The notes under the pieces: model-generated | Seen by the model: only the letters and a program-made list of their open reading frames with translations | The model's database searches: none | What the model was told of the DNA's origin: nothing | Part shown: positions 5,850-58,011 of the stretch, piece by piece | How the letters are laid out: each line of letters opens with the position of its first letter | Position numbering within the stretch: position 1 is the first letter of the stretch | Position numbers and translations under genes: made by a program | Assembly (NCBI GenBank): GCA_964459835.1 | Contig: CAYWPA010000001.1 | Span: 110,957-174,956 of the forward strand | Direction: 5' to 3' | Length of the DNA stretch: 64,000 bases | Source: an uncultured Methanosarcinales archaeon | GTDB lineage: Archaea > Nanobdellota > Nanobdellia > Woesearchaeales > UBA12501

Positions 5850-5884
5850 TAATTAATAATGATATACTTTTCTCTTCTATGGAG

Positions 5885-5907: not shown

Positions 5908-6070
5908 GTATAAAAGAAAATAAACAAAAAGCTAAAAAAACAGAATTAAAACACAAATAATAAAAAACCATATACAGCAAAAACTATCCTGCTAAATCTA
6001 TTCCAAAATATATATTTTACAAAACAAGTGCATTTATTAAATAAAACCCACAACAGCCTTATACCTATGT

Positions 6071-6098
6071 TTCTTATGGAGATAAGGGGTGGGGGGTG
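6071..6098 (+). promoter_or_regulatory. ORB-like element c (G-string GGGGTGGGGGGT) immediately 5' of the cdc6 start; could alternatively be a Shine-Dalgarno-like element
   Basis: TTCTTATGGAGATAAGGGGTGGGGGGTG ends 5 nt before the ATG of orc1/cdc6. Confidence 0.35.
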
Positions 6099-6102
6099 TT
6101 AG

Positions 6103-7308
6103 ATGGAGCAGCTATATGATTTATTTCAGAAGTATATCAAAAACGAGCCTATTTTTAACGATAAAAAAGTTCTGCAGGCAAACCACACACCTGAAATCAT
6201 CACCCATAGGGAAAGGGAAATAGAGCAAATAGGCAAAGCTCTTGCTCCTGCTTTAAGGCAGCAAAAGCCATCAAACTTATTTTTATACGGCAAAACAGGA
6301 ACAGGCAAGACACTGTCTGCACTCTACACAACAAAAAAGCTGAAAGAGATTGCAGAAAAAGAAAAAATACCTTTGAATGTCATATACATAAACTGCAAGC
6401 TCAAAAAACAGGCAGATACAGAGTACAGGCTAGTAGCGCAGATAGCAAGAGCTTTAGGGAAAACAATCCCAATAACAGGCCTTCCTACTGATGAGGTTTA
6501 CAAAACTTTTTTTGAGGCAATTGACCAGAAAGAGCATGTTTTTATTTTGATACTGGATGAGATAGATCAATTGGTGAAAAAAACAGGCGATGAGATTCTT
6601 TATAATCTGACAAGAATAAACTCAGAATTAAAAAAAGCACAGGTCTGCATTGTTGGCATATCAAATGACCTGATTTTTACTGAAAATCTAGACCCAAGGG
6701 TAAAATCATCTTTGTCAGAAGAAGAAATTATTTTTCAGCCTTACAATGCAATGCATCTGCAGGATATTTTGAGGGAAAGATCCAAAAGAGCGTTTAAGGA
6801 AAACGTTCTTGAGCATGGTGTTATAGAAAAATGCGCAGCATATGCAGCAAGAGAGCATGGAGATGCAAGAAGAGCTTTGGAGCTTTTGAGGGTTGCAGGA
6901 GAATTGGCAGAAAGGGAAGGCTTGGAAAAGGTTGAAATCAAGCATATAGATGAGGCAGAGGACAAAATAGAAAAGGAGCGTGTATTTGATATTGTACTGC
7001 TGCAGCCAAAGCAGTTTCAGCTGACACTTTACTCTATATTAACACTCCACAAAAAAACAAAAGGCACAATCTTCACAGGGGATGTTTACGAAATCTACGA
7101 AAGCCTCTGCAAAAAGACATCAGTAAGACCATTGACCCAGAGAAGGATATCAGATATAGTTGCAGAGCTTGATATGCTCGGCATAATAAATGCAAGGACC
7201 ATATCAAAAGGAAGGTATGGGAGAACAAGGGAGATAAGCGTTGCAATACAGCACTCAATCGAGGAAAAAATAAAGGAAGCTTTGGAAAAAGACCTAGGAC
7301 TGATATGA
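6103..7308 (+). CDS. cdc6: Orc1/Cdc6 replication initiator
   Basis: Walker A (LYGKTGTGKT) and Walker B (ILILDEID) in an AAA+ fold, plus a C-terminal winged helix; 401 aa. Confidence 0.9.
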   Translation: MEQLYDLFQKYIKNEPIFNDKKVLQANHTPEIITHREREIEQIGKALAPALRQQKPSNLFLYGKTGTGKTLSALYTTKKLKEIAEKEKIPLNVIYINCKLKKQADTEYRLVAQIARALGKTIPITGLPTDEVYKTFFEAIDQKEHVFILILDEIDQLVKKTGDEILYNLTRINSELKKAQVCIVGISNDLIFTENLDPRVKSSLSEEEIIFQPYNAMHLQDILRERSKRAFKENVLEHGVIEKCAAYAAREHGDARRALELLRVAGELAEREGLEKVEIKHIDEAEDKIEKERVFDIVLLQPKQFQLTLYSILTLHKKTKGTIFTGDVYEIYESLCKKTSVRPLTQRRISDIVAELDMLGIINARTISKGRYGRTREISVAIQHSIEEKIKEALEKDLGLI

Positions 7309-11900: not shown

Positions 11901-12448
11901 AGCTAAAATACCCATGGGAGGTTGAAATAGAGCAAGTTAAAAAAAGGCTAGGAACCCCAGGGCAGTATGAAGGGTATGGATTTACACATGATGTTTCAAA
12001 CATAAATGCAGGAATTCCTTGCTCAGCATACAAAACACTCCCTTCTATGGAAGAAAAGCTAAAAGGGCAGATGGACCTGGCTGAAAAGATAAGAGCCGTA
12101 GATGCAAAAGAGATTGCAAGGCTTGTAATAGAAAAGCACTTCCTAAAAGACACAAGAGGAAACCTAAGAAAATTCTCAATGCAGCAATTTAGATGCAGCA
12201 AATGCAATGAAAAGTTCAGGAGGCCGCCCTTAGTTGGGAAATGCACAAAATGCGGTGGAAATTTAATGTTCACAATTTCAGAAGGGTCTATAATAAAATA
12301 CCTGAAGCCTTCAATAAGCCTCGCCGAGAAATACGACGTTGATCCGTATCTCAGGCAGGTTCTGGAAATAACCCAAAAAAGGGTTGATGAGGTTTTCGGA
12401 AAGGAAAAAGAAACTCAATCAGGCCTGGGAAACTGGTTTAAAACATAG
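8912..12448 (+). CDS. polD2: DNA polymerase II (PolD) large subunit DP2
   Basis: 1178 aa with DP2-typical Zn-binding clusters (CAKCRKE…CEECG; RCSKCNEKF…CTKCGG). Overlaps the polD1 stop by 4 bp; no intein. Confidence 0.9.
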   Translation: MKQESEEIQEYFNSISSELKSAYEVAKEARKLGLDPENKVDIPIANNMAERVEGLISADSPELLGTGLTKRIQELEDKYGALAWEVAIQIALEVAQEKFCKFKSKIKAMETGIRTGMAYSTAGIVSAPLEGFVELKIKKRLDGKEYFALSYAGPIRGAGGTAAAFSVVIADCIRKKMMYETYDPTEQEVKRFVSELYDYHERVTNLQYLPSEEEIEFLAKHLPIEIDGEPTEKFDVSNYKDLPRVETNKIRGGVCLVMGEGVAQKAAKLWKRLQKWENEFNIDWGFLKEFLELQKRIKAKQEKEEKQEKIMPNYTYIKDLVAGRPVLTHPMRAGGFRLRYGRTRTTGFSSSAINPALQHVLNKYIATGTQLKLERPGKATAVTICENIEGPIVKLENGNVVQLSTTKEAYDSVPNIKEILFLGDILISYGDFSENGHCLIPPGYCEEWYAQEFEKACVDIFGSLDLDKISSNIEISADSLKHFLREPIINIFDFQESFHISQKLGIPLHPKYTYHWNLIKPEQLLDLTGWLNHAKFDITDRLQKIILPMDERKRILELIGLPHIVATEYVVVEKDHAQSLFTSLGRSENMESIKEKISELIKEGKGTLEIINLLSPITIRDKSGIFIGARMGRPEKAKMRRLTGQPHVLFPVGDEGGRLRCFQSALEAGTISSVFPVYFCAKCRKETIYGVCEECGETTEKRHYCRECGIMEKKECPRHGPCTDYRPYSIDIKHYFTSSLKKLNMATFPDLIKGVKGTSNKDHVPENIAKGILRAKHDIYVNKDGTTRYDMTELPITHFKPKEIGTPVRKLKELGYKKDIKGKELESEDQILEIRPQDVILPGSAAGLAESADNVLFRIGQFIDELLAKIYNKEPYYNFKAKEDVVGCLVIGLAPHTSAGIVGRVIGFSQTQGFFTHPMFHAAMRRDCDGDEACVILLMDALLNFSRKYLPDKRGSRTMDSPLVLTTKLVPAEVDDMVLGLDIVSKYPLEFYKAAMELKYPWEVEIEQVKKRLGTPGQYEGYGFTHDVSNINAGIPCSAYKTLPSMEEKLKGQMDLAEKIRAVDAKEIARLVIEKHFLKDTRGNLRKFSMQQFRCSKCNEKFRRPPLVGKCTKCGGNLMFTISEGSIIKYLKPSISLAEKYDVDPYLRQVLEITQKRVDEVFGKEKETQSGLGNWFKT

Positions 12449-12490
12449 TTTTCTAATTGATTTTAATTCTAAACCATATTATAAAACACA

Positions 12491-12913
12491 CTATATGATT
12501 GATTTTACCGAGTGCTTTGCCCCGCACGCCATGCACATGACAAAAGCCAGATTTTTCTCTTTTATCATTTTTGTATCAGGCTTTCCGCATTCGCTGCACA
12601 GGACAAACTCATTTGCATACTTCTGTATTTTTTCATTTATTTTTGAAGCAGGAACTTTTGTTTTAAGTATAAGCTGATTGTTCCTTATATCCCCAGGTGT
12701 TGCTAGCTCCTTTAGTGTATACTTAAGAAAATGGTCAATTGGCCTTTGGAGATGATTTCCTATCTGGATAAAGTTGCTTACAACTGTTTTGTTCCCCTCT
12801 ATATGCCCCTTTACATTAGGGATTTCAAACCTCTGCTTTTCCTTTGCGCTTTCAGGCAGCTCTTTTGTTGCCTTGTCAAGAAGGCTCTCATAATCTGCAT
12901 TTTCATTTTTCAT
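12491..12913 (-). CDS. eif2b: Translation initiation factor aIF-2 beta subunit
   Basis: C-terminal C4 zinc ribbon (CSECGKPDT…CMACGA) and conserved eIF2-beta core. Start chosen at MKNENADY… rather than the upstream in-frame M. Confidence 0.75.
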   Translation of the reverse strand: MKNENADYESLLDKATKELPESAKEKQRFEIPNVKGHIEGNKTVVSNFIQIGNHLQRPIDHFLKYTLKELATPGDIRNNQLILKTKVPASKINEKIQKYANEFVLCSECGKPDTKMIKEKNLAFVMCMACGAKHSVKSII

Positions 12914-12992
12914 AGCTTCAAAGAAAAGCAAGCCGTTTTTAAATCTATCTAAAAACAATAAATTTATATATGTAAAAACCGGAAAGTTTAGC

Positions 12993-13847
12993 ATGGTTCT
13001 GGAGTCAATTATAAGCCCGATATCAGCCGAAAAAAAGCCTTGGAAAATGTTCTTTATAGGCCTGCTTTACTCTTTGGTTGCAGTTTTCATAAGCGTACAG
13101 ATTTTCAATGAAATGGCAGGGCTAATATCTGTTTTTTTAATTGTGATGGCATCAATCCCATTAATTTACAGGACAATAATCATGGAGGAAAAAAAAGACA
13201 TGCATCCAGTGGGAGAGGCAACGCTGTTAAAAGAGCATTCAAAAGCACTGTCTTTTTTCATAATGCTGTTCTTGGGAGTGTTTGCAGGATATACTTTGAC
13301 CTATATATTTCTTCCAGCAGAAACAATAAATAGCATCTTTTCAATTCAGATAAACACTATAAAAAACATAAACAGCAACATAGTGATAGGGAGCGCAAGC
13401 CAGAACTATACTTTATTCACAAAAATATTTTTCAACAATGTGAGGGTGCTTATCTTCTGCATACTTTTTGCATTCTTCTATGGTGCAGGCGCCATATTTA
13501 TCCTTACATGGAATGCATCTGTGATAGCAGTTGCTACAGGCACATTCTTCAGAAACAATATATCGGCCATCACCTCTTTAGTGGGTTTTGACAAGATAGC
13601 AGGATATTTTTCAGTTGCTTCAATGAGCCTGCTGCGGTATATGGTGCACGGCGTGCCTGAAATTACTGCCTACTTTATAGCAGGCCTTGCAGGAAGCATA
13701 ATATCCGTTGCAGTAATAAGGCACGATTTCTCCTCAAGCAACTTTGAAAGAATCTTAGTAGACACTGTCGACCTTATACTTATATCAATAGCAGTCTTGT
13801 TTTTTGCAGCAACATTAGAGGTATTTGTCACCCCTTTGCTATTCTAG
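12993..13847 (+). CDS. Integral membrane protein (about 6 TM; possibly SpoIIM/DUF95-like)
   Basis: 284-aa hydrophobic ORF; family assignment is weak. Confidence 0.4.
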   Translation: MVLESIISPISAEKKPWKMFFIGLLYSLVAVFISVQIFNEMAGLISVFLIVMASIPLIYRTIIMEEKKDMHPVGEATLLKEHSKALSFFIMLFLGVFAGYTLTYIFLPAETINSIFSIQINTIKNINSNIVIGSASQNYTLFTKIFFNNVRVLIFCILFAFFYGAGAIFILTWNASVIAVATGTFFRNNISAITSLVGFDKIAGYFSVASMSLLRYMVHGVPEITAYFIAGLAGSIISVAVIRHDFSSSNFERILVDTVDLILISIAVLFFAATLEVFVTPLLF

Positions 13848-14519
13848 AACCTTAACCCTCCCCGGCTTTATCTCAAAAATATCCCCGCGCATAAGAAGCC
13901 TGTTTATTATGGCCTCGGCATCGCTCTTTGCATCGCTTTTTTTTGATTTAGAAATAATATCTTCAATATCCACACCATTTCCTGAGTCAAGGCTTTTTAT
14001 TATTTTTATTATGCTTTCTGAGGTGCTGTTATCATATTCATCCTTTTTTCCAACAATCTCTTTAGCATGCTCATTTTTTTCTTCTGTTTTGCTTCTTTCA
14101 TCTTTTTTATTTTCTAATTCATATTCTATCTTTGGCGCACTCTTAAAAATATTTTCAAGCTCTTTTTTTCTAACTTCAGCCCATTTTTTATCGTTTATTT
14201 TTTTTATTATTTCAATAACTAAAAATATCTGCCCATTGAACTCTCTTGGCCTGCCGACAAAAACAACCATATCTCCCACATTAGCCTTATCAAAAAAAAT
14301 GTTTTCATCAAATGCTCTTGCTGTTATTTTTCCGCTTCCATCGTCAAGAACAACGCTTCCATTGGTTTTATCAACAACACCTGCAATTATATTTGCTCTG
14401 GAGATCTTTCTTCCATTGCAAAGGATATGGTTTGGCTCCCACCCCTCATTCACAATATATTTTCCAGAGAGCAGGCTGCCTATATCTGTTTTATAAGCAG
14501 TTTGCCTGTCCTGCTGCAT
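13839..14519 (-). CDS. OB-fold nucleic-acid-binding protein with C-terminal winged helix (RPA32/Rpa2-like), immediately downstream of mcm
   Basis: OB-fold core (…GDMVVFVGRPREFNGQIFLVIE…) plus the C-terminal motif …INRLLMRGDIFEIKPGRVKVLE. This resembles the MCM C-terminal winged helix (…IEKLKRSGDIFEPRPGMFRRL). Confidence 0.45.
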   Translation of the reverse strand: MQQDRQTAYKTDIGSLLSGKYIVNEGWEPNHILCNGRKISRANIIAGVVDKTNGSVVLDDGSGKITARAFDENIFFDKANVGDMVVFVGRPREFNGQIFLVIEIIKKINDKKWAEVRKKELENIFKSAPKIEYELENKKDERSKTEEKNEHAKEIVGKKDEYDNSTSESIIKIIKSLDSGNGVDIEDIISKSKKSDAKSDAEAIINRLLMRGDIFEIKPGRVKVLE

Positions 14520-14521
14520 TT

Positions 14522-16540
14522 TTACAGCCTCCTGAACATTCCAGGCCTAGGCTCAAAAATATCACCTGACCTCTTCAGCTTCTCTATGATCTCTTCAGTC
14601 CTTTCTCTTGAAATATTCTTTTCCTCTGCTTTCTTTATAATATCTTCAGCAGGTATCGCTTTTCCTATCATCTTTTCAAGGTCTGATATAATATCTTTTA
14701 TTGTTATGATCTGGCTTCTCTGTGAAGCTGATATTCCTGTCGATATCATGTCAATGTCTATTTTTCCTGTTTTCTCATCCATGCTGACTTGGGTCAGGCA
14801 GTAAGCAATAAGGTCAATTGCCCTTTTTGTATCTTTTTTTGTAACCTTTTCAGACAGCCTTGATTTTGCAGAAGCCTCTGAAAGCCTTATCAAAGCTTCA
14901 AGCTGCCTTGCTGTAATAGGTATTATTCTTACTCCTCCTTCTTCCACCCCAGTTGCCCTCATAGAAACATAATAATTTTTTATTTCTTCAATAGCGTCTT
15001 CTGTCAATGTGGGAAAAATATTTCTTCTTGCGTAAGCAACATACTTTCTAAGCAAATCTGTCTCTATTTCTGCTTCTCCTACTTCCTCATGCTTATGCAA
15101 ATCAAGAATAAAAGAAGCTGTTTTTTCATCATGCTCTTTGTTCGGCAAATCTTTTATAGGGAATAATAAGTCAAACCTGTTTATCAAAGTTGCAGGCAAT
15201 TCAATCTGCTTTGCAACAACATCATAAGGGTTAAACCTTCCAAGCTTTGGGTTTGCTGCAGCAAGCACAGTTGTCTCGCATCTTAACGTTGCCTGTATAT
15301 TTGCCTTGCTTATGCTTACAGTCTGCTGTTCCAAGGCCTCGTGCATCGCGCTTGCATCCTCCTTACTCATCTTGTCAAGCTCATCAATCATGCAAAACCC
15401 TCTGTTTGCCAATACTAAAGCTCCTGCTTCCAAAGCCCAGCCTTTAAGGAATTCATCCCTTACAACAGCGGCAGTTAATCCAGCTCCGCTTGCCCCCTTT
15501 CCGGAAACAAACCTTGACTTAGGAGCAACAGACTTTATTCTCCTAAGCAGCTGGCTCTTTCCGCTTCCAGGGTCTCCAATAAGAAGGATGTGCATATCCC
15601 CTCTTATCTGAACGCCATCTTTCCTTTTTTTCTGCACGCCTCCAAGCAGCTGAAGTAGAATAGCTTCTTTGATTTTTTCATATCCATAAATTGAAGGTGC
15701 AAGGGACTTCACAAGAATCTCATAAACTCTTGGGTCTTTTGACAGCTCAATTATTTTTTTCTTATCTTCATCATCTATTTGCAGATTCATGTAATCTTCA
15801 TCAACACCATCAACAAAATTTGTGTCAATCATCAGGTCAAACCTTATAGACTGTCCACCTGTGTTTAGCGTTATAGGGACTTCCTTTACAATTCCATTTA
15901 TCATAATCTTGCTGCCAGGGTTTGTCTTTTTATCCTCTAAAGGGCTTACCAAATCCTGCTTCAGCAGTATATCCATTCTCTTTGGCTGCTCCCCTCCTTC
16001 CAAGTCATCCGGAGACTCCTCAAGAACAATCCTTTGTACATCAACAAGCTCCTTTCCAAGAAGCTTGAACTTTCCCTTTCTTCCGCAGCCGCATCTTGAA
16101 GGCTCCCTGAATTTCTGCTCCAGCTGCAAAACAGACAAAACATTGCCGCAGCTTGGGCATTCAAACCTTGCAGTTGTTACCTGCGGCCTTACATCCGATT
16201 TTTGCCTTACTATTCCCTGCGTGAAGATAAGCTTTCCAATCTGCTTGCTTCTCACATCCCTCACCATAATTTTCTGGCTTTCCGGAAGATTTGAGAACCT
16301 AATCCTGAAGTTCTTTGCCTTATTATCAACATCAAAGTCATCTACCGCGAGCTCAGCAGCCTTTATGACCTCTTCAGGCTCTTCCAGAAGATTGTCTGCA
16401 AGCTCAGGGTCAAACTTTGCAAGCTGGGCAAAGTCAATTGCAAGAAAATTCTTTCCCATTCTTACATTCTCAAGAAGCTCAGCATATTGATTAGCTTGAA
16501 TATATTCTCTGAATCTTTTAATCTGTTCTATTGAATCCAT
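14522..16540 (-). CDS. mcm: MCM replicative helicase
   Basis: Walker A IGDPGSGKSQLL, Walker B CMIDELDKM, zinc finger CPSCGN…CGCG and C-terminal winged helix; 672 aa, no intein. Confidence 0.92.
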   Translation of the reverse strand: MDSIEQIKRFREYIQANQYAELLENVRMGKNFLAIDFAQLAKFDPELADNLLEEPEEVIKAAELAVDDFDVDNKAKNFRIRFSNLPESQKIMVRDVRSKQIGKLIFTQGIVRQKSDVRPQVTTARFECPSCGNVLSVLQLEQKFREPSRCGCGRKGKFKLLGKELVDVQRIVLEESPDDLEGGEQPKRMDILLKQDLVSPLEDKKTNPGSKIMINGIVKEVPITLNTGGQSIRFDLMIDTNFVDGVDEDYMNLQIDDEDKKKIIELSKDPRVYEILVKSLAPSIYGYEKIKEAILLQLLGGVQKKRKDGVQIRGDMHILLIGDPGSGKSQLLRRIKSVAPKSRFVSGKGASGAGLTAAVVRDEFLKGWALEAGALVLANRGFCMIDELDKMSKEDASAMHEALEQQTVSISKANIQATLRCETTVLAAANPKLGRFNPYDVVAKQIELPATLINRFDLLFPIKDLPNKEHDEKTASFILDLHKHEEVGEAEIETDLLRKYVAYARRNIFPTLTEDAIEEIKNYYVSMRATGVEEGGVRIIPITARQLEALIRLSEASAKSRLSEKVTKKDTKRAIDLIAYCLTQVSMDEKTGKIDIDMISTGISASQRSQIITIKDIISDLEKMIGKAIPAEDIIKKAEEKNISRERTEEIIEKLKRSGDIFEPRPGMFRRL

Positions 16541-18169: not shown

Positions 18170-18320
18170 GGGGACGTAGTATAACCTGGCTAGAATGGCT
18201 GGCTCCAGTTATGGAGCGATGAGCTGCAGAACACTGTAGCGATGATTGCAGCTATGGTCTGTTGAGGCGTTGCTTCAAAGAAGAGACCAGCAGATGGGGG
18301 TTCAAATCCCTCCGTCCCCA
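18170..18320 (+). tRNA. trnW: tRNA-Trp (anticodon CCA) with a 77-nt intron (18209-18285) at the canonical 37/38 position
   Basis: Acceptor stem GGGGACG/CGTCCCC with discriminator A; U8 A9 G10; D-loop AACCTGGCTA. Anticodon stem GCTGG (18198-18202)/CCAGC (18287-18291); loop C-U33-CCA-G37. T-arm GGGGG-TTCAAAT-CCCTC. A TATA-like ctttaaatacc lies ~30 bp upstream and a T-tract follows the 3' end. The D-stem is weak (G10-U25, A12·A23). Confidence 0.6.
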
Positions 18321-44794: not shown

Positions 44795-45073
44795 ATGCTG
44801 AGCATGCAGAAAATAACCGAAACTTACGGCATGAAAGTCTTTACCGATTCTGGCGAATACTTTGGAGATGTTGAGGAATCAATCCTGACAAAAACAAAGG
44901 TTTTCGGATGGAGGGTAAAGGCAACAAAAAATTCTTATCTTGCAAAAGTTCTTGGCTCTGCAAAAGGAGTTATTGTTCCGCACCAGCTTGTAAAGTCTAT
45001 AGGAGACATAATGATAATAAGCAGGGCAGCAATGCCTTCCTATACTCCTGAAGAAGAAAAGGCAGCGCATTAG
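44795..45073 (+). CDS. PRC-barrel domain protein
   Basis: ~92 aa from the ATG at 44795; the pattern …ITETYGMKVFTDSGEYFGDVEESIL…VIVPHQLVKSIGDIMII fits a PRC barrel. Confidence 0.45.
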   Translation: MLSMQKITETYGMKVFTDSGEYFGDVEESILTKTKVFGWRVKATKNSYLAKVLGSAKGVIVPHQLVKSIGDIMIISRAAMPSYTPEEEKAAH

Positions 45074-46101
45074 GCTTTTGGAATCTGCCAGTTATAGTCT
45101 TGCAATTTTCTTATTCTTCCGCTCGCATACCACGGCTTGTCATCTCTGTGATTTATTGTCATTGCCCATAAAAGAATTTCAATGTCTGCCCTGTTAAGCT
45201 TTCTTAGCTTCCCATCTTCATCAATCTTTAGAACATTATTAATAGCTTTAACGTAAAATTCAACAGTTTTTTCAGATGGCAGTGCAAATGGGCTCATTTC
45301 TAAAGGAGTTCTGTTTTTGGCTTTTGAACGATCAGAGCATATCTTCAAATAGGCTGCGACTTCATGAGGGCAGTAGATAAACACTTTTGAATCTTCTTTT
45401 TGATCCTCGTAGTTATATCTTATTCTGCCAAATTCTTTTGACTTGCAGTTGTGTGTTGACCTTAGCTTTGGCCAAAGGCTAAATCTTTTATTTGCTCTTT
45501 CAGTAGGCACACAATACAATGTAAATTCATGCTTGTCCTCCCCCTTTGTCCTCGATGGGACGCTAACAACAAATGTTGTTCCCTCTCTTCTTGATACTTT
45601 CGCACTATAATCAGCCATAATATCTATCGATGTAGAAGGCGTATTTTCTACATAAGCAAATATCCTTGCGCCTTCTATGCATGTTTCAAGAGAAATTCTG
45701 TTTGTTCTGCTATCGACACCAAAAGGCTTTATAGAATAACATGAATAAAAAGGAGAAGTTATGCTGCCAAAAGCCTGTGCCCTTAAGTCTAAAGGAGTGA
45801 GGGCAGAAGCAATCATATCTTCTTCGCTGGCAAATCTCTTAAGCTTTACATCAGGGCCATGTTTTTTGAATTTATTTACAGTCTGATCTCCAGGAATAAT
45901 CTGACATGTAACTAATACATATTGGCCTGATGCTGTATCTTCAATAACTTTTGCTATATCTTTAACAGTTTGGTCTGGCTCTATAACAATCTTTTCAAGC
46001 TTCTTTATTTGAGCTACTGTCCTCTCCTCAAAAAACTTCTTCTTTACCATTTTCCCCACTAAGCCTGTAAAATAGCCCCTATATTTAAACCTTATCAACA
46101 C
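45070..46101 (-). CDS. Hypothetical protein (343 aa)
   Basis: Long ORF with coding-like composition and no motif I can name. Confidence 0.45.
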   Translation of the reverse strand: MLIRFKYRGYFTGLVGKMVKKKFFEERTVAQIKKLEKIVIEPDQTVKDIAKVIEDTASGQYVLVTCQIIPGDQTVNKFKKHGPDVKLKRFASEEDMIASALTPLDLRAQAFGSITSPFYSCYSIKPFGVDSRTNRISLETCIEGARIFAYVENTPSTSIDIMADYSAKVSRREGTTFVVSVPSRTKGEDKHEFTLYCVPTERANKRFSLWPKLRSTHNCKSKEFGRIRYNYEDQKEDSKVFIYCPHEVAAYLKICSDRSKAKNRTPLEMSPFALPSEKTVEFYVKAINNVLKIDEDGKLRKLNRADIEILLWAMTINHRDDKPWYASGRIRKLQDYNWQIPKA

Positions 46102-46136
46102 AAACTATAAAAACAAGCGCTTGCTGCTATTAATTA

Positions 46137-46182
46137 TTGGGTGGATTGTTGTTTGGTTAGTGCCCGGAAGTTGATTCTAACA
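46137..46182 (+). promoter_or_regulatory. 46-bp conserved upstream element, copy 1 (ttgggtggattgttgtttggttagtgcccggaagttgattctaaca)
   Basis: Identical at 44 of 46 positions to 47598-47643. Ends 19 bp before the ATG of the 46202 gene. Confidence 0.75.
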
Positions 46183-46201
46183 ATATATCACAGAGAAGAC
46201 T

Positions 46202-47572
46202 ATGGAGCTGATTTACGCACCTAAATGGGGGATAGAAGACGATCGTGTCCAAGAGCTTGATCATTGCAGAGTAGAGCTTAATGAGCTAGATTCTATACTG
46301 GCTTTGGAGCGTAAGCATAACTCCGAATCTTTAGAAACAATTGAACAAAAAAGGAAAAAAATAAACTCTCTAAAAAAAGCGATTTCCGCTATAAAAAAGA
46401 ACCCGCCAAAGGGTTTTGATGCGCTTGTTCTAGAAGATATAGAGGAAAATGTTGAAAGGAATTTGGCAGAATATAGGCACTTTCATGAAGACGATGTAAA
46501 AAATCCTGAAAAAAACACAAAACTTGCAAAGTATCTTGCAGCAATATTCGGCAGGGCAACATATACCAACCTAATTGCCATGGCCCGTCCAAAAAACCTA
46601 GACCACGTTACCATACATGAATATTTTAAAATGCTCAATGACATACAAGTATCTTCATTTCCCCCAGGGCTTATCACAGGCTCCGACCGGTTTAAAAAAA
46701 TAAAAGGCGATGTGCATAAGTTACTTAATAAGTACAAAGAGCAGTTTGGTTTAATGTTCAATGACCTAGGGATAATACGCAGAGAATCTGATTCTGATTA
46801 TATGATTGATATTTCACCCGATGATGATACATCCTGGCATACTTTCCATGATGTAATGTCAATAAATGTTTCAGAAATGCCATATTACAAGAAAAAGCGC
46901 AGAGGAGATTATGAATTTATCAAGCCAATGGGGTTTTTAGTCGGGGTACATGAGAATGTTCACAGGCTTCATGAAGAAATAAGCGAGCTTTGCATGCCTT
47001 TTGGACTAAGGGAAAACCCAAAAGCCTCATCTCCTACCTGCCACAAGACGCCCTCAGAAGGGGTTTCTGAATATTCTGCTGAAGTAGCCTTGCCATGGGT
47101 AACAAAAAATATTGCTATGTTGGAGCTTAATGAAGAAGAGTGTAAACTGGCAAATCTTTATGTGCAGCTGGCAACAAGCTGTCTGATTAAGAGAACTCTT
47201 TTTGGTGTGCTGTGGTACAAGCATATGGAGGATGATGACAAAAAAGGAATGCCTGAATCAGCAAAAGTTGAAGCAAGGAAAGAGTTTGTACGAATTACAG
47301 GGGATACGAGGGCGTTGACAGACTATGAATATTATCAGATTATGGATATGGATGAAATATTAGATAATATGTCATATATTTTCGGTAAAAGAAGAATCGA
47401 GAGGATAGCCTATGAAGCAAGGAAAAAACATAACATCAGGAATAACGATGGCCTGATTCTGCAAGCATTGATGACTGGCATATGGACAAGCGAATATGCG
47501 CAGTTGAAATTCGTTCGCGATCATTATATACCTAGGGCAATAGAAGACGGCTATTTAACCCGAAACCCTTAA
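46202..47572 (+). CDS. Hypothetical protein with an HExxH motif (possible zinc-metallopeptidase-like), 456 aa
   Basis: …GVHENVHRLHEE… contains HENVH; no other family-level recognition. Preceded by the conserved 46-bp element. Confidence 0.45.
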   Translation: MELIYAPKWGIEDDRVQELDHCRVELNELDSILALERKHNSESLETIEQKRKKINSLKKAISAIKKNPPKGFDALVLEDIEENVERNLAEYRHFHEDDVKNPEKNTKLAKYLAAIFGRATYTNLIAMARPKNLDHVTIHEYFKMLNDIQVSSFPPGLITGSDRFKKIKGDVHKLLNKYKEQFGLMFNDLGIIRRESDSDYMIDISPDDDTSWHTFHDVMSINVSEMPYYKKKRRGDYEFIKPMGFLVGVHENVHRLHEEISELCMPFGLRENPKASSPTCHKTPSEGVSEYSAEVALPWVTKNIAMLELNEEECKLANLYVQLATSCLIKRTLFGVLWYKHMEDDDKKGMPESAKVEARKEFVRITGDTRALTDYEYYQIMDMDEILDNMSYIFGKRRIERIAYEARKKHNIRNNDGLILQALMTGIWTSEYAQLKFVRDHYIPRAIEDGYLTRNP

Positions 47573-47597
47573 ATATTACCTGCACCTTACTGTTTTT

Positions 47598-47643
47598 GTT
47601 GGGTGGATTGTTGTTTGGTTAGTGCCCGGTGATTGATTCTAAC
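47598..47643 (+). promoter_or_regulatory. 46-bp conserved upstream element, copy 2
   Basis: See copy 1. Ends 25 bp before the ATG (47669) of the HAD hydrolase gene. Confidence 0.75.
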
Positions 47644-47668
47644 AGAAAAAGTTACGATAGGGGGCACT

Positions 47669-48571
47669 ATGACACAGAACAAGATTGCACTAATTTTTGA
47701 TTTTGACAACACCTTGCTAAAAGGCTATATGCAGGATCCTATTTTTGAGCACTTTAAGTTTCCTTCCGCAGAATTCTGGGACCTTAAAGATAAAAGATAT
47801 AACAAATTAAAAGAAGAAGGCAAAGACCCTCAAAATGAGAACGTTTATCTGGACCTTCTTTGTGATTTTGCACAACAGGGGCAGCCATTTGAGGGGCTAA
47901 ACCACGCACTGCTAGCAGACTTGGCTAAAAATCTTAATTTCTTTCCTGGTGCAGTTGATTTTCCAAAACATATGGGTGAAATGATAAGGTCAAATCCAAA
48001 ATTTGTAAAGTATGATATTTCTGTTGAATCATACATAATAACATCCGGGCTAAAAGTAATGGTTGAAAACAGTGCAATTGCTCCAAATGTTAAGAGGATA
48101 TGGGGCTGCACATTTGAAGAAAGAGAGGGAAGATTGTATAGGCCAGTGAAGCAAATTTCTTTTGCAGACAAAACATCATGCATTGTTCAAATAAACAAAG
48201 GCACGGGTATCGATGTTAATGCCCCTATGGCTGAAGAAGTAAGAAGAATACCTTTTTTTGCAATGATATATTTTGGCGACGGCCAAACAGATATGCCCCC
48301 ATTTGCATTCTTGACCAAATATGATGATCCAAGAAAAAATGGCCAAAATTTTGGCGTTTGCGACCCTGAAAATGAGCAAGCAATTGCTGAGCTGGACAAA
48401 TTAATCTGGTCTGGAAAGCTGACTTATTTTGGCGCTGCTGATTACAGGCCGGAAAGCCTTACTTATAAATTTGCAGAAACAGCAACTAAAAGAGCAGCAA
48501 CAAGGCTTCATAACAATATTGAATCAAAGATAGCAGCAGGAATAGGGGAAGCGCCAGGAACACTTAGATGA
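47669..48571 (+). CDS. HAD-superfamily hydrolase
   Basis: Motif I IALIFDFDNTLL (DxDxT); motif III/IV …YFGDGQTDMP…; ~300 aa. Confidence 0.65.
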   Translation: MTQNKIALIFDFDNTLLKGYMQDPIFEHFKFPSAEFWDLKDKRYNKLKEEGKDPQNENVYLDLLCDFAQQGQPFEGLNHALLADLAKNLNFFPGAVDFPKHMGEMIRSNPKFVKYDISVESYIITSGLKVMVENSAIAPNVKRIWGCTFEEREGRLYRPVKQISFADKTSCIVQINKGTGIDVNAPMAEEVRRIPFFAMIYFGDGQTDMPPFAFLTKYDDPRKNGQNFGVCDPENEQAIAELDKLIWSGKLTYFGAADYRPESLTYKFAETATKRAATRLHNNIESKIAAGIGEAPGTLR

Positions 48572-48585: not shown

Positions 48586-48630
48586 TAGCCTACCGTTGCC
48601 ACGTTCCCGGATGGTTTTCTATCCGGAAGG
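48586..48630 (+). terminator. Strong imperfect hairpin (TGCCACGTTCCCGGAT-ggttttct-ATCCGGAAGGTGGCA) followed by ttttaaaaa; putative terminator or regulatory stem-loop
   Basis: ~15-bp stem with one bulge between the HAD gene stop and the next gene start. GC-rich relative to its surroundings. Confidence 0.35.
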
Positions 48631-51161
48631 TGGCACGGATTTTAAAAATGGGATTTGTGACAGGGTTCAGAAGGCTGCCAAAGGCAGAGCAGCTGGAGAT
48701 TTATGGAAACCATGATTCAAACAGAATTAGATTTTACACTTACAGTACAGAAACCCAAAGCTCAGGCTATCTTGATAAAATTGTTGAGCATGAATTTGTA
48801 ACAAAGTATGCAAGAAACAAAGATGCAAGGGCAAGGCAGGAAAAGCTTTGCCAAAGCCTTGCGCAAAATCCAAAGTTTAAAGGAGTAAGGTTTGAGCAGC
48901 ATGAAGGAACACTTCATGCATTTGCGCATCCTGAGGATAAAAACATTCTTCCTACAGCATTTATTGCTCAGAGAAAAAAAACATACACGCCAAGATCAAG
49001 AACTTTCAAAGCATATGAAGAGGCAAAAGCCCTTGCCCTCAAACATAGCAACTGGCTAAAGCAGAGCAATATAAGTTACGGCATAAAAAATACTTTAACT
49101 GGAGACTTCTACATAGAGCTTATATGCAAAAAGTCTGACTTGCGATTCATAGAGCAAAACGGCAATGCTCTTTTTACTGTTTATGAAATGGTTTCAGAAG
49201 AAATATCTCATGGGGATGCACTTGCACTCCATCATAGCTTGGAAGAGCACTTGAGGCATGCTGACATAAGGCTTGTTCAGCCTGAAGGGGAAAAGCCTTA
49301 CATAAGGGCTTTTGCAAACAAAGCAGGAACAATAGCACTGAAAAGAAAAGGGCTTAGGCCTGTTTTGGAGAATGGAAAACCAAGAATAAATTCTAAAAGA
49401 AATATACAGGATGTTCTAAGCATGGATTCCCCAACAAGAATGCTGAGATGGAAAGTACCTGTTTTTACGCTTGAAGAGGAGCTGGAAAAAGCTCCAAAAG
49501 ATCCTGAAGATGCGCATTCAATACACTCCTTTGGCAAAAAACAGGCAAGCCTTGAAGATATTTTAAAAGCAAAGAGGGCAGTGATTGATATAGAGGTTCA
49601 GGACTATGACAAGCCGGGCATAGAAAAGGTTTACGCAGCTGTATTCTACACACCCGACGAAAAAACTGTGTTTACAATTTATGATCCCGGCATTTCAGAA
49701 ATAAACGGCGCAAAAGTTGTTGTCTGCAAAAATGACAAAGAATTGCTGGAAAGGCTTGCAGAAAAAGAAAGGGAATACGATCCATTGTTTGTCATAGGCC
49801 ATAACATAATGGCTTATGACAGACTCAAACTGAAAAGCCTTGCAGCAAAAAAAGGCTTAAATTACTCTGTTAGCAGCGATGAAAAAGAGCCAAGAGTCCA
49901 TGCAACTTTCAGGGAATTTGACAAAAGGGTCATATCACCATCAAGAATCGAGATTGATACTTTGTATTTACGGCAGCTTAATCATCTTAAAAACAACAAG
50001 CTTGAAACGCATGCAAAAAGGGCGATGCTGGATTTTGAAAAAGAGCATAGCTATGTAGAGCTGAGAATCCTTGTAGAACACGCAAAAAAAGGCGATAAAG
50101 AGGCAGCAAGGAAGCTTGCAAAATATGTTGTTGAAGACGGCAGGGTTTCTTTGCAGCTTGCAGAAAAATACATGGAAAACATAATAATGAAAAGCCTTGC
50201 GCTCAAAAGAAGCCCCTCTGAAATATGCAAGTCAGACATGCCTGATCTTTTTGATGAAAAAAGAAGAAGGGATTTCTTTGCAAGAAGAAAGGCCTTCACA
50301 AGGCCAATAAAGCATGAATACACACTTGAAGAAGAGGCTGTAAAATTATTTAAAGCAAGAAAAGGCCTTGAATTTGAGAGAGCGGTTTTTGATAACACTG
50401 CAGCAATATACCCTCTTTTTGTAATCGAGGGGCTTAAGCCTCTTATAGAACACGATGAGCAAATGCATAAGCTGTACAGAATAATGCATTCGTCACTAAA
50501 CCCAGACATACAGTTTGACATTGCAAAGTTCCTTTCTGCTTTTCTCCAGTACAGTTATTTTGAAAAAATAAGGCTAGGAAGCAGCCCTGTTGCTTACGTC
50601 TTAATGGACAGCATAGAAAAAAACCTGCAGAAAACACTTGACGCTATGAAAGATGCTTCACTTATTAATATCACAAAAGATCTTATTTACATTTCATCAG
50701 CTCCGGAAATAAGCAAAATAAATGGAGATTTGTGCTTAACAATAGAGCACGGAAGGGCAATAAGCATAGCACCAGGAAAGATCATAATGAAAGGAAAAGG
50801 CGCAGATATATATCAGGGCATTGATCCAAAGGGAAGAGGAAATACTGTGTTTGAAGTGCATTTTATAGAAAGCTTAGTGAACCTAGTACTTAATGGCGGC
50901 TCTGTAGAAGATATAGGGGCAGAGCTTGACAACCTTAAAGATGAATTTGGAGATACATTCTACAATGCAATGTATGAAAAGTTTGGAAGAATAATGAGGC
51001 CTATGCTGTATAATAAGGATGCAGAACATACACAAGGGCTTTTGGTATCAAAAGTTTCATATAAAAAAACAAAAAAACATGGGCAGGTACCTTCTTACAG
51101 AGGTCGCAAAAGAAGAAAAATTGCAGAAAATAATACGCAAATGACTTTAAAACTTATTTAG
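48630..51161 (+). CDS. Large protein (843 aa) with a DEDDy-type 3'-5' exonuclease core; possibly a highly divergent family-B-polymerase-like protein
   Basis: Exo I AVIDIEVQD. Exo II FVIGHNIMAYDRLKL (HNxxYD). Exo III AKYVVEDGRV (YxxxD). Downstream, weak motif-A-like VFDNTAAIYPLF and motif-C-like YVLMDS. No clean KxxxNSxYG or DTD. Confidence 0.5.
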   Translation: MARILKMGFVTGFRRLPKAEQLEIYGNHDSNRIRFYTYSTETQSSGYLDKIVEHEFVTKYARNKDARARQEKLCQSLAQNPKFKGVRFEQHEGTLHAFAHPEDKNILPTAFIAQRKKTYTPRSRTFKAYEEAKALALKHSNWLKQSNISYGIKNTLTGDFYIELICKKSDLRFIEQNGNALFTVYEMVSEEISHGDALALHHSLEEHLRHADIRLVQPEGEKPYIRAFANKAGTIALKRKGLRPVLENGKPRINSKRNIQDVLSMDSPTRMLRWKVPVFTLEEELEKAPKDPEDAHSIHSFGKKQASLEDILKAKRAVIDIEVQDYDKPGIEKVYAAVFYTPDEKTVFTIYDPGISEINGAKVVVCKNDKELLERLAEKEREYDPLFVIGHNIMAYDRLKLKSLAAKKGLNYSVSSDEKEPRVHATFREFDKRVISPSRIEIDTLYLRQLNHLKNNKLETHAKRAMLDFEKEHSYVELRILVEHAKKGDKEAARKLAKYVVEDGRVSLQLAEKYMENIIMKSLALKRSPSEICKSDMPDLFDEKRRRDFFARRKAFTRPIKHEYTLEEEAVKLFKARKGLEFERAVFDNTAAIYPLFVIEGLKPLIEHDEQMHKLYRIMHSSLNPDIQFDIAKFLSAFLQYSYFEKIRLGSSPVAYVLMDSIEKNLQKTLDAMKDASLINITKDLIYISSAPEISKINGDLCLTIEHGRAISIAPGKIIMKGKGADIYQGIDPKGRGNTVFEVHFIESLVNLVLNGGSVEDIGAELDNLKDEFGDTFYNAMYEKFGRIMRPMLYNKDAEHTQGLLVSKVSYKKTKKHGQVPSYRGRKRRKIAENNTQMTLKLI

Positions 51162-52235: not shown

Positions 52236-52407
52236 GAGTTCTGCACTGTTTTCATTGTTTTAGCTTATTTACGAAAAATTTTCTATTTTTCTGAAAGTCT
52301 TTCATATTTTCCAAAAAATATTCAACAATTCTTAAGCAAGCCTTAACAAACGTCTCTTTTTCAGCATCTTTGCAAAAGATTTATATATTATAATGTATTA
52401 TAATAAA

Positions 52408-52608
52408 ATGGAACTTGAAATCACCAATCACGCATATGAGCAGATGATAGAAAGGGGCATAGATAAAGAACAAGTTATGCGTACTATCAAAAGAGGTTCG
52501 AGATATAAGCAAACTAACGGTTATTTGAGTGTCTACGGCTATATTGCTGTTGCTTATATGGCTGCAGGCAAAGGAAAATATAAAATAAAAACAGTGATGA
52601 TAAGATGA
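52408..52608 (+). CDS. DUF4258-family toxin-like protein
   Basis: MELEITNHAYEQMIERGIDKEQV… is the hallmark DUF4258 N-terminus. 4-bp overlap with the downstream antitoxin-like gene. Confidence 0.5.
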   Translation: MELEITNHAYEQMIERGIDKEQVMRTIKRGSRYKQTNGYLSVYGYIAVAYMAAGKGKYKIKTVMIR

Positions 52609-52937
52609 TGCGCGAAAAATGCGATGAATGCGGCGGAAAGCTGATTGAAAAAAAGCTACCTTATAGGGTCCATGGAGAATTCATAAGTAATTTTCTAGCA
52701 GTTGTTTGTACAAAATGCGGTGAAATATGTTACAGCGGAGATACTATTTCAGAGATGACAAAGATATTAAAGAAAAAAGGTCTGTGGGGCTTAGAATCAA
52801 CAACAAAAATACAGAAAGTAGGGGATTCTTTTGGGGTTATAATAAATAAAAAAATTGCTGAATACCTTAATTTAAAGAAAGGAGAAAGTGTAAGGATAAG
52901 GCCTTCGGGAAAAAATAAAATAATTATTGAAGTATAA
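52605..52937 (+). CDS. Antitoxin-like protein: MqsA/YgiT-type zinc finger fused to an AbrB/SpoVT swapped-hairpin domain
   Basis: CDECGGKL…VHGEFISNFLAVVCTKCGE (YgiT-type Zn finger), then …KVGDSFGVIINKKIAEYLNLKKGESVRI (AbrB-like). Confidence 0.5.
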   Translation: MMREKCDECGGKLIEKKLPYRVHGEFISNFLAVVCTKCGEICYSGDTISEMTKILKKKGLWGLESTTKIQKVGDSFGVIINKKIAEYLNLKKGESVRIRPSGKNKIIIEV

Positions 52938-57594: not shown

Positions 57595-58011
57595 ATGCTG
57601 CAAAAATACTACTTAGACACTTCAATCTGGCTTGATTTCTTTGAAAACAGGGATGAACCACATTTGCCCAAGGGAAAATGGGCACATGAGCTTTTAAAGA
57701 AAATTATAGAAAATAATGATAAAATTATTTATTCGGATAATAATATTTACGAATTGAATATAATAGGTTATTCTGCATATGAACTTGATATTATACTACA
57801 GCCACTTAAACCAATTCTCATCTTTGTAGAATCAACCGAAAAACAAATCAGCAAAGCTAAAGACCTCTCATTAAAAAGAAATATTCCAAAAAGAGATGCC
57901 CTTCATGCACTTATTGCAAGGGACAACAAATCAATATTAGTTACTTTGGACAGGCATTTCCAAAAAATTCATGATATTATAAAACCAAAAAAGCCTCAAG
58001 ACCTCATTTAG
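57595..58011 (+). CDS. PIN-domain protein (VapC-like)
   Basis: YLDTSIWLDF (first acidic residue), …DALHALIARDN… and …LVTLD… are PIN signature positions. Confidence 0.6.
   Translation: MLQKYYLDTSIWLDFFENRDEPHLPKGKWAHELLKKIIENNDKIIYSDNNIYELNIIGYSAYELDIILQPLKPILIFVESTEKQISKAKDLSLKRNIPKRDALHALIARDNKSILVTLDRHFQKIHDIIKPKKPQDLI

Follow-up and report, generated by a model that had tools for sequence, protein, structure and literature searches.

A conserved module of about 42 nt ahead of putative scavenging genes in Woesearchaeota-like archaea, probably a shared regulatory leader or operator

A nearly invariant module of about 42 nt was found ahead of two consecutive genes in a stretch of 64 kb (the window, meaning the whole stretch of DNA analyzed), which is from a DPANN (Woesearchaeota-like) archaeal chromosome, and ahead of further genes in seven other genomes. 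This repeat is probably a shared 5' leader, or an operator at positions +1 to +42, that marks a scavenging regulon, and not the scar of a mobile element. Based on sequence comparison, we hold a shared leader or cis-regulatory module to be the best explanation with moderate confidence.

Two copies of the element in the window

The two copies, the genes behind them and the neighboring genes are as follows.

46137..46182, + strand: copy 1 of the element (mismatch search; nhmmer E=1.7e-13; alignment of 11 copies)
46202..47572, + strand: gene of the HExxH protein, 456 aa, a putative gluzincin-type zinc metallopeptidase; first gene with the putative leader
47599..47644, + strand: copy 2 of the element (block 47599-47640 conserved across genomes; nhmmer E=1.5e-12)
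47669..48571, + strand: gene of a HAD-IB-like phosphatase, 300 aa, with weak HAD-IB matches; second gene with the putative leader
48630..51161, + strand: gene of an 843-aa protein with a family-B DNA polymerase exonuclease-like region (domain search)
45070..46050, - strand: divergent gene of a 326-aa protein, function unassigned, with its own TATA box (complement of 46078-46091) and Shine-Dalgarno sequence

The near-identical 46-bp pair of the original prediction is confirmed. The 31-mer with up to three mismatches occurs exactly twice in the window, and any match was obtained in 0 of 100 dinucleotide shuffles. Copy 1 is located where it was first reported; copy 2 occupies 47599-47644 instead of 47598-47643, and a recount gives 43 identical positions of 46 rather than 44. 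Both copies consist of an identical 31-nt core, TTGGGTGGATTGTTGTTTGGTTAGTGCCCGG, followed by AAG or TGA, which account for the three mismatches (A/T, A/G and G/A), and by 12 identical bases, TTGATTCTAACA. With three extra flanking bases the match is 45/49. A weaker third copy was not detected in the 64 kb by mismatch search, blastn with word size 7, or nhmmer --max. The part of copy 1 kept across genomes is a block of 42 nt (46137-46178) with the 3' end TTGATTCT, and its tail AACA is common to copy 2 only. The copies are 1462 nt apart with a whole gene in between. Copy 1 is separated by 19 nt from the ATG at 46202, and copy 2 by 24 nt from the ATG at 47669, in agreement with the short distances first proposed.

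Logan contigs (k=31) of run ERR3478686, which come from a second assembler, match the window exactly. The contig breaks fall inside both cores, with one contig covering 46138-47627 and another starting at 47601, so both copies with their own distinct flanks are present in the reads. These reads may be those behind the assembly of the window, so the match stands for a second assembly and not for independent data.

The gene labels given at first, an HExxH protein of unknown function and a HAD hydrolase, hold loosely. Residues H250, E251 and H254 (H250-E251-x-x-H254) and E286 are invariant among 32 homologues of the HExxH protein. Its AlphaFold model has a pLDDT of 92.6, and the best fold matches, all weak, are DUF885-like "putative lipoproteins" (3o0y/3u24) and M3 oligopeptidases; the protein is a putative gluzincin-type zinc metallopeptidase with a distant M3/DUF885-like fold. 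The 300-aa protein matches TIGR01488 HAD-IB with E=6e-6, under the cut-off, and Pfam HAD with E=0.006, and its closest homologues are merely 28-36% identical. One homologue locus that was looked up (P0003, 36%) has a bacterial gene context. A Shine-Dalgarno-like run GGGGG is located 5-9 nt before the ATG of the HAD gene. The HExxH and HAD genes both have few close relatives. No TATA-like box was seen in the gap of 58-76 nt after the HAD gene, and the 843-aa gene may therefore share the HAD transcript. The divergent 326-aa gene is outside the element and merely bounds the intergenic region.

Distribution and sequence of the element

Nine further copies were found in seven other genomes (11 copies in eight genomes in total), a small and biased census because the collection scans required exact 19-20-mers and missed variants; the 20-mer used for the genome collection ended in CCCGG and excluded the common CCCGT variants, so the reference-genome count is an underestimate. 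All copies have the orientation of the next gene and are located on its strand, ahead of it. Three of the further copies precede homologues of the HExxH protein of the window, with 30-35% protein identity. Five precede one orthologous salvage gene (312-328 aa), or an ASCH gene inserted before it, in five genomes where the proteins are 49-60% identical. Identity between copies of the element is 79-95%, and the DNA on either side is unalignable. The orthologous placement is kept although several of these Woesearchaeota-type archaea are only distantly related. The element is absent from the HExxH homologues in L014/L015 and L016 and is therefore restricted to a subgroup; a bacterial HAD homologue locus (L009) has no element and an unrelated context.

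The genes downstream of the copies encode a PD-(D/E)XK nuclease, DeoC, dCMP deaminase, Q_salvage, ASCH, HAD-IB, HExxH peptidase, TldD/PmbA and M14/AstE-like peptidase proteins, and their shared theme leans partly on weak or sub-threshold annotations. The structure prediction of the 327-aa salvage-operon protein (pLDDT 51) was too poor for a fold search; a hint to its function is a weak Nuc_deoxyrib_tr match in two of five members (E=0.029).

The consensus of the element is TTGGGYGGATTGTT(G)TTNGGTTAGTGCCYR, followed by 3 to 7 variable nt and TTGATTCT, which gives a module of about 42 nt that can be summarized in the pattern GGATTGTT-N0-1-TTNGGTTAGTGCC. Positions 1-29 are near-invariant at almost every base, with position 18 four-fold free (T/C/A/G), and the linker is free in length and sequence. 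The element is asymmetric and T/G-rich on the coding strand. Such base-by-base conservation fits recognition along the entire length.

Copies at random intergenic or intragenic sites, the outcome that would have spoken against the original prediction, were not encountered, and every true extra copy is promoter-proximal. A MITE, an IS or another dispersed mobile repeat, which would have terminal inverted repeats, a target-site duplication and many copies in both orientations and also within genes, was rejected on the grounds of two copies in 64 kb, none intragenic, all oriented with the gene and lacking terminal inverted repeats. An origin of the element as a piece of a LeuC-like gene was rejected: a coding sequence of Massilibacteroides has 26 nt exactly in common with copy 1 and nothing else similar, and the match was treated as chance.

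The copies had also been proposed as direct-repeat ends of a duplicated or inserted cassette. An attachment site of such a cassette or of a mobile element, or else an artefact of assembly, would agree with the bracketing of one gene by both copies, with the scarcity of close relatives of the HExxH and HAD genes, and with the k=31 graph, which alone cannot fix the order of the segments around a 31-nt exact repeat. However, the duplication in the window is limited to the element, and no recombinase, terminal inverted repeats, hairpin or target duplication was found. The HExxH homologues of L017 and L018 have a single copy upstream and nothing downstream. Copy 2 is at least as close to the copy of L003 (95%) as to copy 1 (93%), flanks and linkers differ between the two copies, and both sets of junctions are present in the second assembly. 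Nor were viral or plasmid copies found: three viral k-mer scans gave two matches, both with non-matching flanks, and BLAST returned none from plasmids and only noise from phages (E=0.8). The cassette is thus unsupported, and together with an artefact it is the most improbable of the readings considered here. The copies "flank" the HExxH gene because each gene would have its own promoter and leader, not because they form a cassette boundary.

Other repeat systems were considered as well. CRISPR arrays have regular repeats with spacers of 25-70 nt, and an array or a solitary repeat was rejected given the spacing of 1462 nt with a full gene between the copies and no match to a CRISPR repeat family. 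In diversity-generating retroelements the TR and VR are repeats of about 100 nt or more that differ at adenines, with the VR at the 3' end of the target gene and a reverse transcriptase nearby; the present repeat is 46 nt long and non-coding, and no reverse transcriptase is among the scanned neighbors. Integron attC sites are alike in that a repeated element separates consecutive unrelated accessory genes. They are imperfect inverted repeats that form hairpins, 3' of promoterless cassettes and accompanied by an integrase, whereas the element has no hairpin, no integrase among its neighbors and its own promoter, and is located 5' of the gene.

The element also has no detectable fold, open reading frame or known family. 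A small ORF across it was rejected: a start codon is not conserved in any of the frames, the frames stop at different places from copy to copy, and the sequences upstream of the copies are unrelated. The surviving reading frame comprises four codons (UUG-UUG-UUN-GGU-UAG), which cannot account for 42 nt of invariance. A tRNA half or D-arm was considered for the resemblance of GGUUAGUGC to a D-loop and rejected in view of the absence of the D-stem pairs 12-23 and 13-22 and of A14; no match of a tRNA model or of ARAGORN falls on the element. Sequestration of a Shine-Dalgarno sequence is not general, since UAGUGCCC pairs with GGGGCACUA in copy 2 only.

A ligand-binding riboswitch, or another structured cis-regulatory RNA for salvage genes, would suit a 5' UTR position ahead of nucleoside and nucleotide salvage genes and a size comparable to the smallest aptamers, such as the preQ1-I aptamer of about 34 nt. 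The sequences argue against this reading, which we regard as highly improbable. Rfam 15 at gathering thresholds gave no match in the window or in six loci (riboswitches, leaders, sRNAs, tRNA, C/D-box and CRISPR repeats), and at E<=10 nothing overlaps the element in the window, with far-sub-threshold chance matches only in L010 and L018. A stable fold was not found, the MFE z-scores of the sense strand being +0.9 to -1.0 against shuffles. One candidate structure, a helix (positions 2-6 with 26-30) plus a pseudoknot (7-12 with 36-41), gained no support from the alignment: 9 of its 11 pairs never vary in copies with little variation, none is changed on both sides, and one is disrupted in L012. 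Moreover, the element has no fixed distance to the start codon and no visible expression platform. Lineage-specific changes common to the copies of one genome suggest a partner in trans and not a self-contained aptamer. Riboswitches and protein-binding leaders of the Rfam type resemble the element in 5' UTR position, gene orientation and the common physiological theme of their genes, but the element differs in lacking detectable structure, covariation and a family, in its free distance to the start codon, and in being conserved in primary sequence.

Promoter geometry and predicted start site

In archaeal promoters, transcription starts about 26-28 nt after an A/T-rich TATA box, which itself follows a purine/A-rich BRE. 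Promoter elements of this kind are found before both copies in the window.

46098..46113, + strand: BRE-like A-rich stretch (ACACAAA) and TATA box CTATAAAAA (46105-46113), promoter of copy 1 and the HExxH gene
47569..47577, + strand: TATA box TTAAATATT, promoter of copy 2 and the HAD gene, ending 21 nt before the element

For copy 1, 23 nt separate the TATA-like 9-mer from the element, and the 9-mer lines up with the TATA boxes of the other copies. The TATA box of copy 2 overlaps the TAA stop (47570-47572) of the HExxH gene. Eight copies have upstream sequence, and in all of them a TATA-like 9-mer with ACAAA-like, BRE-like A-rich runs before it ends 20-24 nt ahead of the first conserved base, a geometry that puts the element at the predicted start site. 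The TATA-like 9-mer occurs at 0.7% of non-ORF positions, and the probability of finding 7/7 within a 5-nt interval is about 1e-10, a figure affected by the choice of the 9-mer pattern after the data had been seen. The option of a shared promoter or operator or a conserved 5' leader in the original prediction is thereby supported and sharpened to a module that is present in at least eight genomes, always ahead of a same-strand gene, and 20-24 nt after a TATA box.

The TATA-to-ATG distance of leaderless genes in the window is 21-23 nt, which agrees with the rule of about 28 nt from TATA box to transcription start (PMC8553660). The element is predicted to begin at the start site because its spacing from the TATA box equals this leaderless spacing, and transcription would probably start at the first G of GGG (46139 and 47601 in the window). 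Between the element and the start codon lie anywhere from 21 to 107 nt, and this freedom indicates an element anchored to the promoter or start site and not to the ribosome-binding site.

One feature of the spacing stands against a shared leader. The spacer to the start codon measures at least 21 nt in every copy; in copy 1, L003 and L006 it is 23, 21 and 21 nt, which corresponds to the leaderless TATA-to-ATG distance and hints that TTGATTCT could act as a weak TATA of a second promoter. The 31-nt core would then be an upstream activating site that binds an activator recruiting TBP/TFB, with the start about 22 nt downstream of a poor TATA box; most element-bearing genes also have no Shine-Dalgarno sequence, like leaderless genes. 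We consider this improbable, as it leaves the canonical BRE/TATA 20-24 nt upstream in 8/8 copies unexplained. In addition, TTGATTCT is invariant and contains G and C, whereas the TATA boxes of this genome are variable and A/T-only, and 7 of 10 spacers are longer (28-107 nt), two of them before genes with a clear Shine-Dalgarno sequence.

The presence of a canonical promoter for the element itself, the abrupt stop of conservation at about +42, the U-rich 3' parts of several copies (e.g. GUGUUUUGAUUCU and GUAUUUUGUUUCUU) and the occurrence of two genomes with two or more copies each would also be expected from a stand-alone RNA of about 40 nt. Such an RNA would act in trans and end in the U-rich TTTTGATTCT, with the gene transcribed separately or by read-through. 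This reading is very doubtful: the copies are constantly and tightly linked to a same-strand gene at orthologous positions, which points to a role in cis, the copies of the window have no U-run (GAAGUUGAUUCUAAC), and no complementary target was found in the window.

Possible modes of action and significance

The shared leader would work as follows. The module, directly downstream of a canonical BRE/TATA promoter and with its conserved block beginning at the predicted start site, would make up the initial ~42 nt of the mRNA of the following gene, so that the HExxH and HAD genes would each have their own promoter and the same leader. We propose that it is a common cis-regulatory tag for a single trans-acting factor, which would put a small set of scavenging or salvage genes under common control, namely metallopeptidases, a PD-(D/E)XK nuclease, a phosphatase and a nucleoside-salvage operon. 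The two copies in the genome of L011 have the same lineage-specific changes, as expected if a factor in trans co-evolves with the element; gene conversion would give the same pattern.

Acting on RNA, the module would be a U/G-rich 5' leader without structure, recognized by a sequence-specific protein or through base pairing. Different DPANN mRNAs would thus begin with the same tag of about 42 nt, by which an RNA-binding protein or a conserved RNA (small RNA or ribosomal RNA) might gate the translation or stability of a regulon for scavenging host peptides and nucleic acids; we propose this tentatively. Kinetoplastid and nematode spliced leaders are alike in outcome only, with different mRNAs beginning with the same sequence of about 40 nt, whereas every gene with the element has its own copy in cis, following its own promoter, and nothing suggests trans-splicing. 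Against an action on RNA are the lack of a fold beyond shuffles, of compensatory changes, and of a complementary partner in the 64 kb above shuffled controls, where duplex folding gave -30 kcal/mol for the best non-self antisense partner and -29 to -35 for shuffled elements.

The same facts are also explained by a DNA operator that spans +1 to +42. It would bind a multimeric repressor that blocks recruitment of RNA polymerase or promoter escape, with the RNA copy irrelevant. The position of the element, which is constant relative to the TATA box and variable relative to the start codon, is consistent with this, as are the absence of RNA structure and covariation, a weak 12-nt periodicity of direct repeats seen by eye (TTGGGTGGATTG / TTGTTTGGTTAG), and the lineage-specific changes common to both copies of one genome. 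The binding sites of archaeal repressors are typically located at the TATA box or start site or immediately after it, as are the Thermococcales glycolytic motif (TrmB-family), SurR sites and NrpR operators. These operators are alike in having one motif with a fixed promoter-proximal position, functionally related genes and conservation across related genomes. However, they are 14-25 bp long, usually dyad-symmetric and degenerate, whereas the element is about 42 nt long, asymmetric, almost invariant and located from the predicted +1. No inverted repeat or dyad is present within the element, and about 35 of 42 base pairs are near-invariant while the orthologous proteins are 30-60% identical, which is far tighter than usual transcription factor sites. 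The conserved part has its boundary exactly at the predicted +1, with no conservation ahead of it, and a DNA site need not respect such a boundary. No conserved regulator gene was found beside the copies, and we know of no cognate regulator of the element. The operator is a possible reading that we hold as tentatively as the RNA tag, and an action at the RNA level is only slightly favored over it.

To our knowledge, these host-dependent archaea cannot make their own nucleotides or amino acids. A literature search found no account of how genes are regulated in these uncultivated archaea, nor of any conserved regulatory motif in them, and queries with the sequence string and on DPANN/Woesearchaeota riboswitch, promoter or salvage topics gave nothing relevant. 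The element is probably a previously undescribed shared regulatory leader. The motif is almost unchanged while the proteins drift to 30-60% identity, and it provides a searchable handle on a putatively co-regulated gene set that is apparently concerned with scavenged peptides and nucleic acids. It also allows transcription start sites to be predicted and a promoter consensus to be given for the lineage, and is a target for metatranscriptomic and biochemical work on regulation by RNA or DNA. Should it be merely an ordinary repressor site, the regulon would still be defined by the motif. If the reading as an RNA tag is true, the element would be the first post-transcriptional signal for an entire regulon to be described in DPANN, and also unusual as a leader that works at the level of sequence and not of structure.

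Two copies in the window and the genes behind them

Two copies of a near-identical element were located in the window by sequence comparison.

46137-46182, + strand: element copy 1, preceding the HExxH gene
47599-47644, + strand: element copy 2, preceding the HAD gene

Copy 1 lies where the original prediction had placed it, whereas copy 2 is shifted one base to the right, and the near-identity holds with 43 rather than 44 of the 46 positions alike: the first 31 nt (TTGGGTGGATTGTTGTTTGGTTAGTGCCCGG) are identical, AAG stands against TGA, and another 12 nt (TTGATTCTAACA) are identical. The distances to the following ATG, predicted as 19-25 bp, are 19 nt (copy 1 to 46202) and 24 nt (copy 2 to 47669). 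With up to three mismatches allowed, the 31-mer occurs exactly twice in the window and was matched in none of 100 dinucleotide shuffles; no weaker copies were found in the 64-kb window by sensitive blastn and profile searches. Contigs of run ERR3478686 from another assembler (Logan, k=31) are identical to the window sequence and end inside both cores, L001 corresponding to 46138-47627 and L002 beginning at 47601. Such a break is inevitable at a 31-nt exact repeat in a de Bruijn graph with k=31. The reads thus contain both copies with distinct flanks; how the segments are ordered across the repeat is taken from the window's own assembly.

The 456-aa product of the gene behind copy 1 carries an invariant HExxH and a downstream Glu, and has 48 distant homologues. 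Its confidently predicted structure (pLDDT 92.6) displays only a distant likeness, to DUF885-type proteins and M3 oligopeptidases, and the protein is a putative gluzincin metallopeptidase. Copy 2 precedes a HAD-IB-type phosphatase, assigned with a weak score, whose relatives are only 28-36% identical; the one locus examined (P0003, 36%) sits among bacterial genes. The gene 3' of the HAD gene encodes 843 aa, with a region resembling the exonuclease of family-B polymerases. Copy 2 has a TATA box that shares bases with the HExxH stop codon, so that the two genes appear to have their own promoters and the same leader.

The reverse complement of the 21 nt that separate copy 1 from its ATG (46180-46200) is matched at 90% by 45139-45159, 1 kb away and inside a divergent 326-aa gene (blastn E=0.036), which is probably due to chance. 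Pairing between UAGUGCCC in the element and GGGGCACUA, which spans the Shine-Dalgarno-like run of the HAD gene, is possible in copy 2 only (47620-47668; -17.2 kcal/mol, z = -1.0); it may be a translational switch particular to this gene, or coincidental.

The window is archaeal chromosome (38% G+C) and encodes, besides replication proteins and huge Ig/PKD surface proteins, a 2-oxoacid dehydrogenase complex and lipoate genes.

4001-16540: replication cluster
6103-7308: Orc1/Cdc6
7305-12448: PolD small and large subunits
14522-16540, minus strand: MCM

The lowest-GC stretch of the window (GC 0.325) lies immediately upstream of cdc6 and is a likely replication origin. At 18170-18320 (+) an Rfam tRNA match (42 bits) spans 151 nt and thus probably denotes an intron-containing archaeal tRNA; ARAGORN in default mode reported none. 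The region 18335-41907 encodes four predicted surface proteins of very large size (1062-1855 aa), with PKD, Big_13, TSP3, MopE-like and DUF2207 domains. Large surface proteins of this kind are typical of episymbiotic DPANN archaea. Toxin-antitoxin-like small genes, DUF4258 with a MazE-like gene (52393-52937) and a PIN gene (57595-58011), adjoin DNA-repair genes for LigD 3'-phosphoesterase, EndoIII-like HhH-GPD and RNase_H_2 family proteins.

Copies in other genomes

The first further copy was found in a Candidatus Woesearchaeota MAG. A total of nine further copies in seven other genomes were obtained by exact-word scans and look-ups of orthologues, making eleven known in all. Copies per genome and the gene set are lower bounds, as the collection scans required exact words and the first word excluded the common CCCGT variant. 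The copies are given by locus or contig.

L003: 5' of a PD-(D/E)XK nuclease
L005 (= L010), L006, L013 and L011: 5' of one orthologous 312-328-aa gene
L012: 5' of the same orthologous gene (312-328 aa), with an ASCH gene inserted between
L011, second copy, other contig end, inverted: 5' of a TldD/PmbA - PQ-loop - AstE/M14 operon
L017: 5' of an HExxH homologue only 35% identical to the window protein
L018: 5' of an HExxH homologue only 30% identical to the window protein

The 312-328-aa gene heads operons with DeoC, dCMP deaminase, Q_salvage protein and PD-(D/E)XK nuclease. An identical 30 nt of the element stands, inverted, at both ends of the Logan contig L011 (1-31 and 8660-8690); in that genome at least two copies therefore head two convergent operons, and each copy is a break point of the assembly. 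The element is absent from three other HExxH homologue loci (L014/L015, L016). L016 (~2000-2070), L017 (~730-860) and L018 (35-141, minus strand) each have, in divergent orientation upstream of the HExxH homologue, a tRNA-like gene carrying a long insert, so the synteny is conserved in three genomes; this gene scored below the Rfam threshold (21.5 bits, E=0.039 in L018) and was missed by ARAGORN. The L017 homologue (1024-2391) is divided into two ORFs of 47 aa and 396 aa. The N-terminal piece aligns with the N-terminus of the window protein, and the split is thus read as a frameshift, pseudogene or sequencing error.

Matches in viral collections and in a bacterial coding sequence were rejected as chance, since their flanks do not match the element. 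The bacterial one, in a Massilibacteroides MAG (L004, 4935-4960), has 26 nt exactly in common with copy 1, including the copy-specific AAGTTG, and nothing else similar. Its extension past the 20-nt seed is improbable by chance (~1e-3), and its by-eye translation contains VVWLVPGSWAVEKQ, which may resemble an aconitase-family/LeuC motif.

Between genomes the element is 79-95% identical, the proteins behind it 30-60%, and the DNA on both sides is unalignable. Comparison of these sequences indicates that each window copy is held by selection. Copy 2 is closer to the L003 copy (95%) than to copy 1 (93%), so the pair in the window did not arise by recent local duplication. Direct-repeat ends of a cassette, offered in the original prediction, or an attachment site are accordingly unlikely, hairpins and terminal inverted repeats being also absent.

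A conserved block at the predicted transcription start

An alignment of the eleven copies, eight of them full-length and three truncated, shows block 1 (positions 1-29) to be near-invariant except for position 18 (all four bases), position 6 (T/C) and position 29 (C/T), with position 15 lost or changed in L017, L018 and L011. A linker of 3-7 nt, free in sequence and length, leads to block 2, TTGATTCT, which shows a single A-to-T change, in L012; the total length is constant at 40-42 nt. The two L011 copies have their lineage-specific changes in common, a pattern compatible with gene conversion or with co-evolution of the sites and a trans-acting reader.

Upstream, only a TATA box is conserved (CTATAAAAA, TTAAATATT, TTTAAAAAC, ATTTATAAA, TTATAAATC, TTATATATT, TTAAATATC, TTTAAATAT). 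In all eight copies with upstream sequence the box follows an A-rich, ACAAA-like run, and its end is 20-24 nt away from the first conserved base. A TATA-like 9-mer occurs at 0.7% of non-ORF positions in the window, and the chance of seven out of seven in register is ~1e-10, for a pattern defined after seeing the sequences. The same kind of box ends 21-23 nt before the ATG of leaderless-looking window genes (starts 12993, 23277, 53352, 55717), in agreement with the usual archaeal TATA-to-start distance of ~28 nt (PMC8553660). On this spacing the conserved block would begin at the transcription start, with the first G of TT|GGG as the most likely position. All genuine copies share the strand of the gene that follows. 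The element is thus established as a promoter-anchored, strand-specific, extremely conserved 42-nt block from the predicted +1, in line with the promoter, operator or 5' leader foreseen originally.

The distance from TTGATTCT to the start codon is 21-107 nt, and no Shine-Dalgarno sequence precedes eight of the ten element-bearing genes. In a minority reading, TTGATTCT would serve a second, activator-dependent promoter as its weak TATA box. In favour of this, no spacer is shorter than 21 nt and three copies have spacers of 21-23 nt; the canonical promoter upstream would be left unexplained.

A proposed leader or operator and a candidate regulon

A shared leader marking a regulon is, taken as a whole, a proposal about as likely as not. 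Action at the RNA level is slightly favoured because conservation begins exactly at the predicted +1, because it extends over almost all bases of a long, asymmetric, U/G-rich stretch, and because the only free parts resemble a bulge and a linker. The main rival, a repressor operator spanning +1 to +42, accounts for the promoter geometry equally well and is possible, if doubtful.

The sense RNA folds no better than shuffles. Pairs of a candidate helix (2-6 with 26-30) and pseudoknot (7-12 with 36-41) almost never vary, with no compensatory changes and one substitution that breaks a pair. The element matched no known RNA family in Rfam, and no stretch of the window pairs with it better than with its shuffled versions. 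Both a true riboswitch and a stand-alone ~40-nt RNA are unlikely. A tRNA or tRNA half was ruled out as D-arm rules fail; coding sequence, hairpin, attC site, an element with terminal inverted repeats, and CRISPR and DGR repeats were also ruled out, and searches of viral and plasmid sequences gave no genuine copy.

The element resembles archaeal operators and conserved bacterial leaders in being promoter-proximal and, as proposed, regulon-marking. However, it matches none of them in detail, with no dyad, fold or Rfam family, and is unusually long and invariant. The genes behind it recur, with several functions assigned from weak matches: peptidases (the HExxH family in three genomes, TldD/PmbA, M14/AstE-like), a nuclease, a phosphatase and a nucleoside-salvage operon. 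Since these organisms depend on salvage (bioRxiv 10.64898/2026.05.13.725050), the element may sensibly be regarded as a common control signal for scavenging genes. Literature searches found neither a published report of the element nor an account of regulation in DPANN archaea. The motif directly defines predicted, testable start sites and a candidate regulon.
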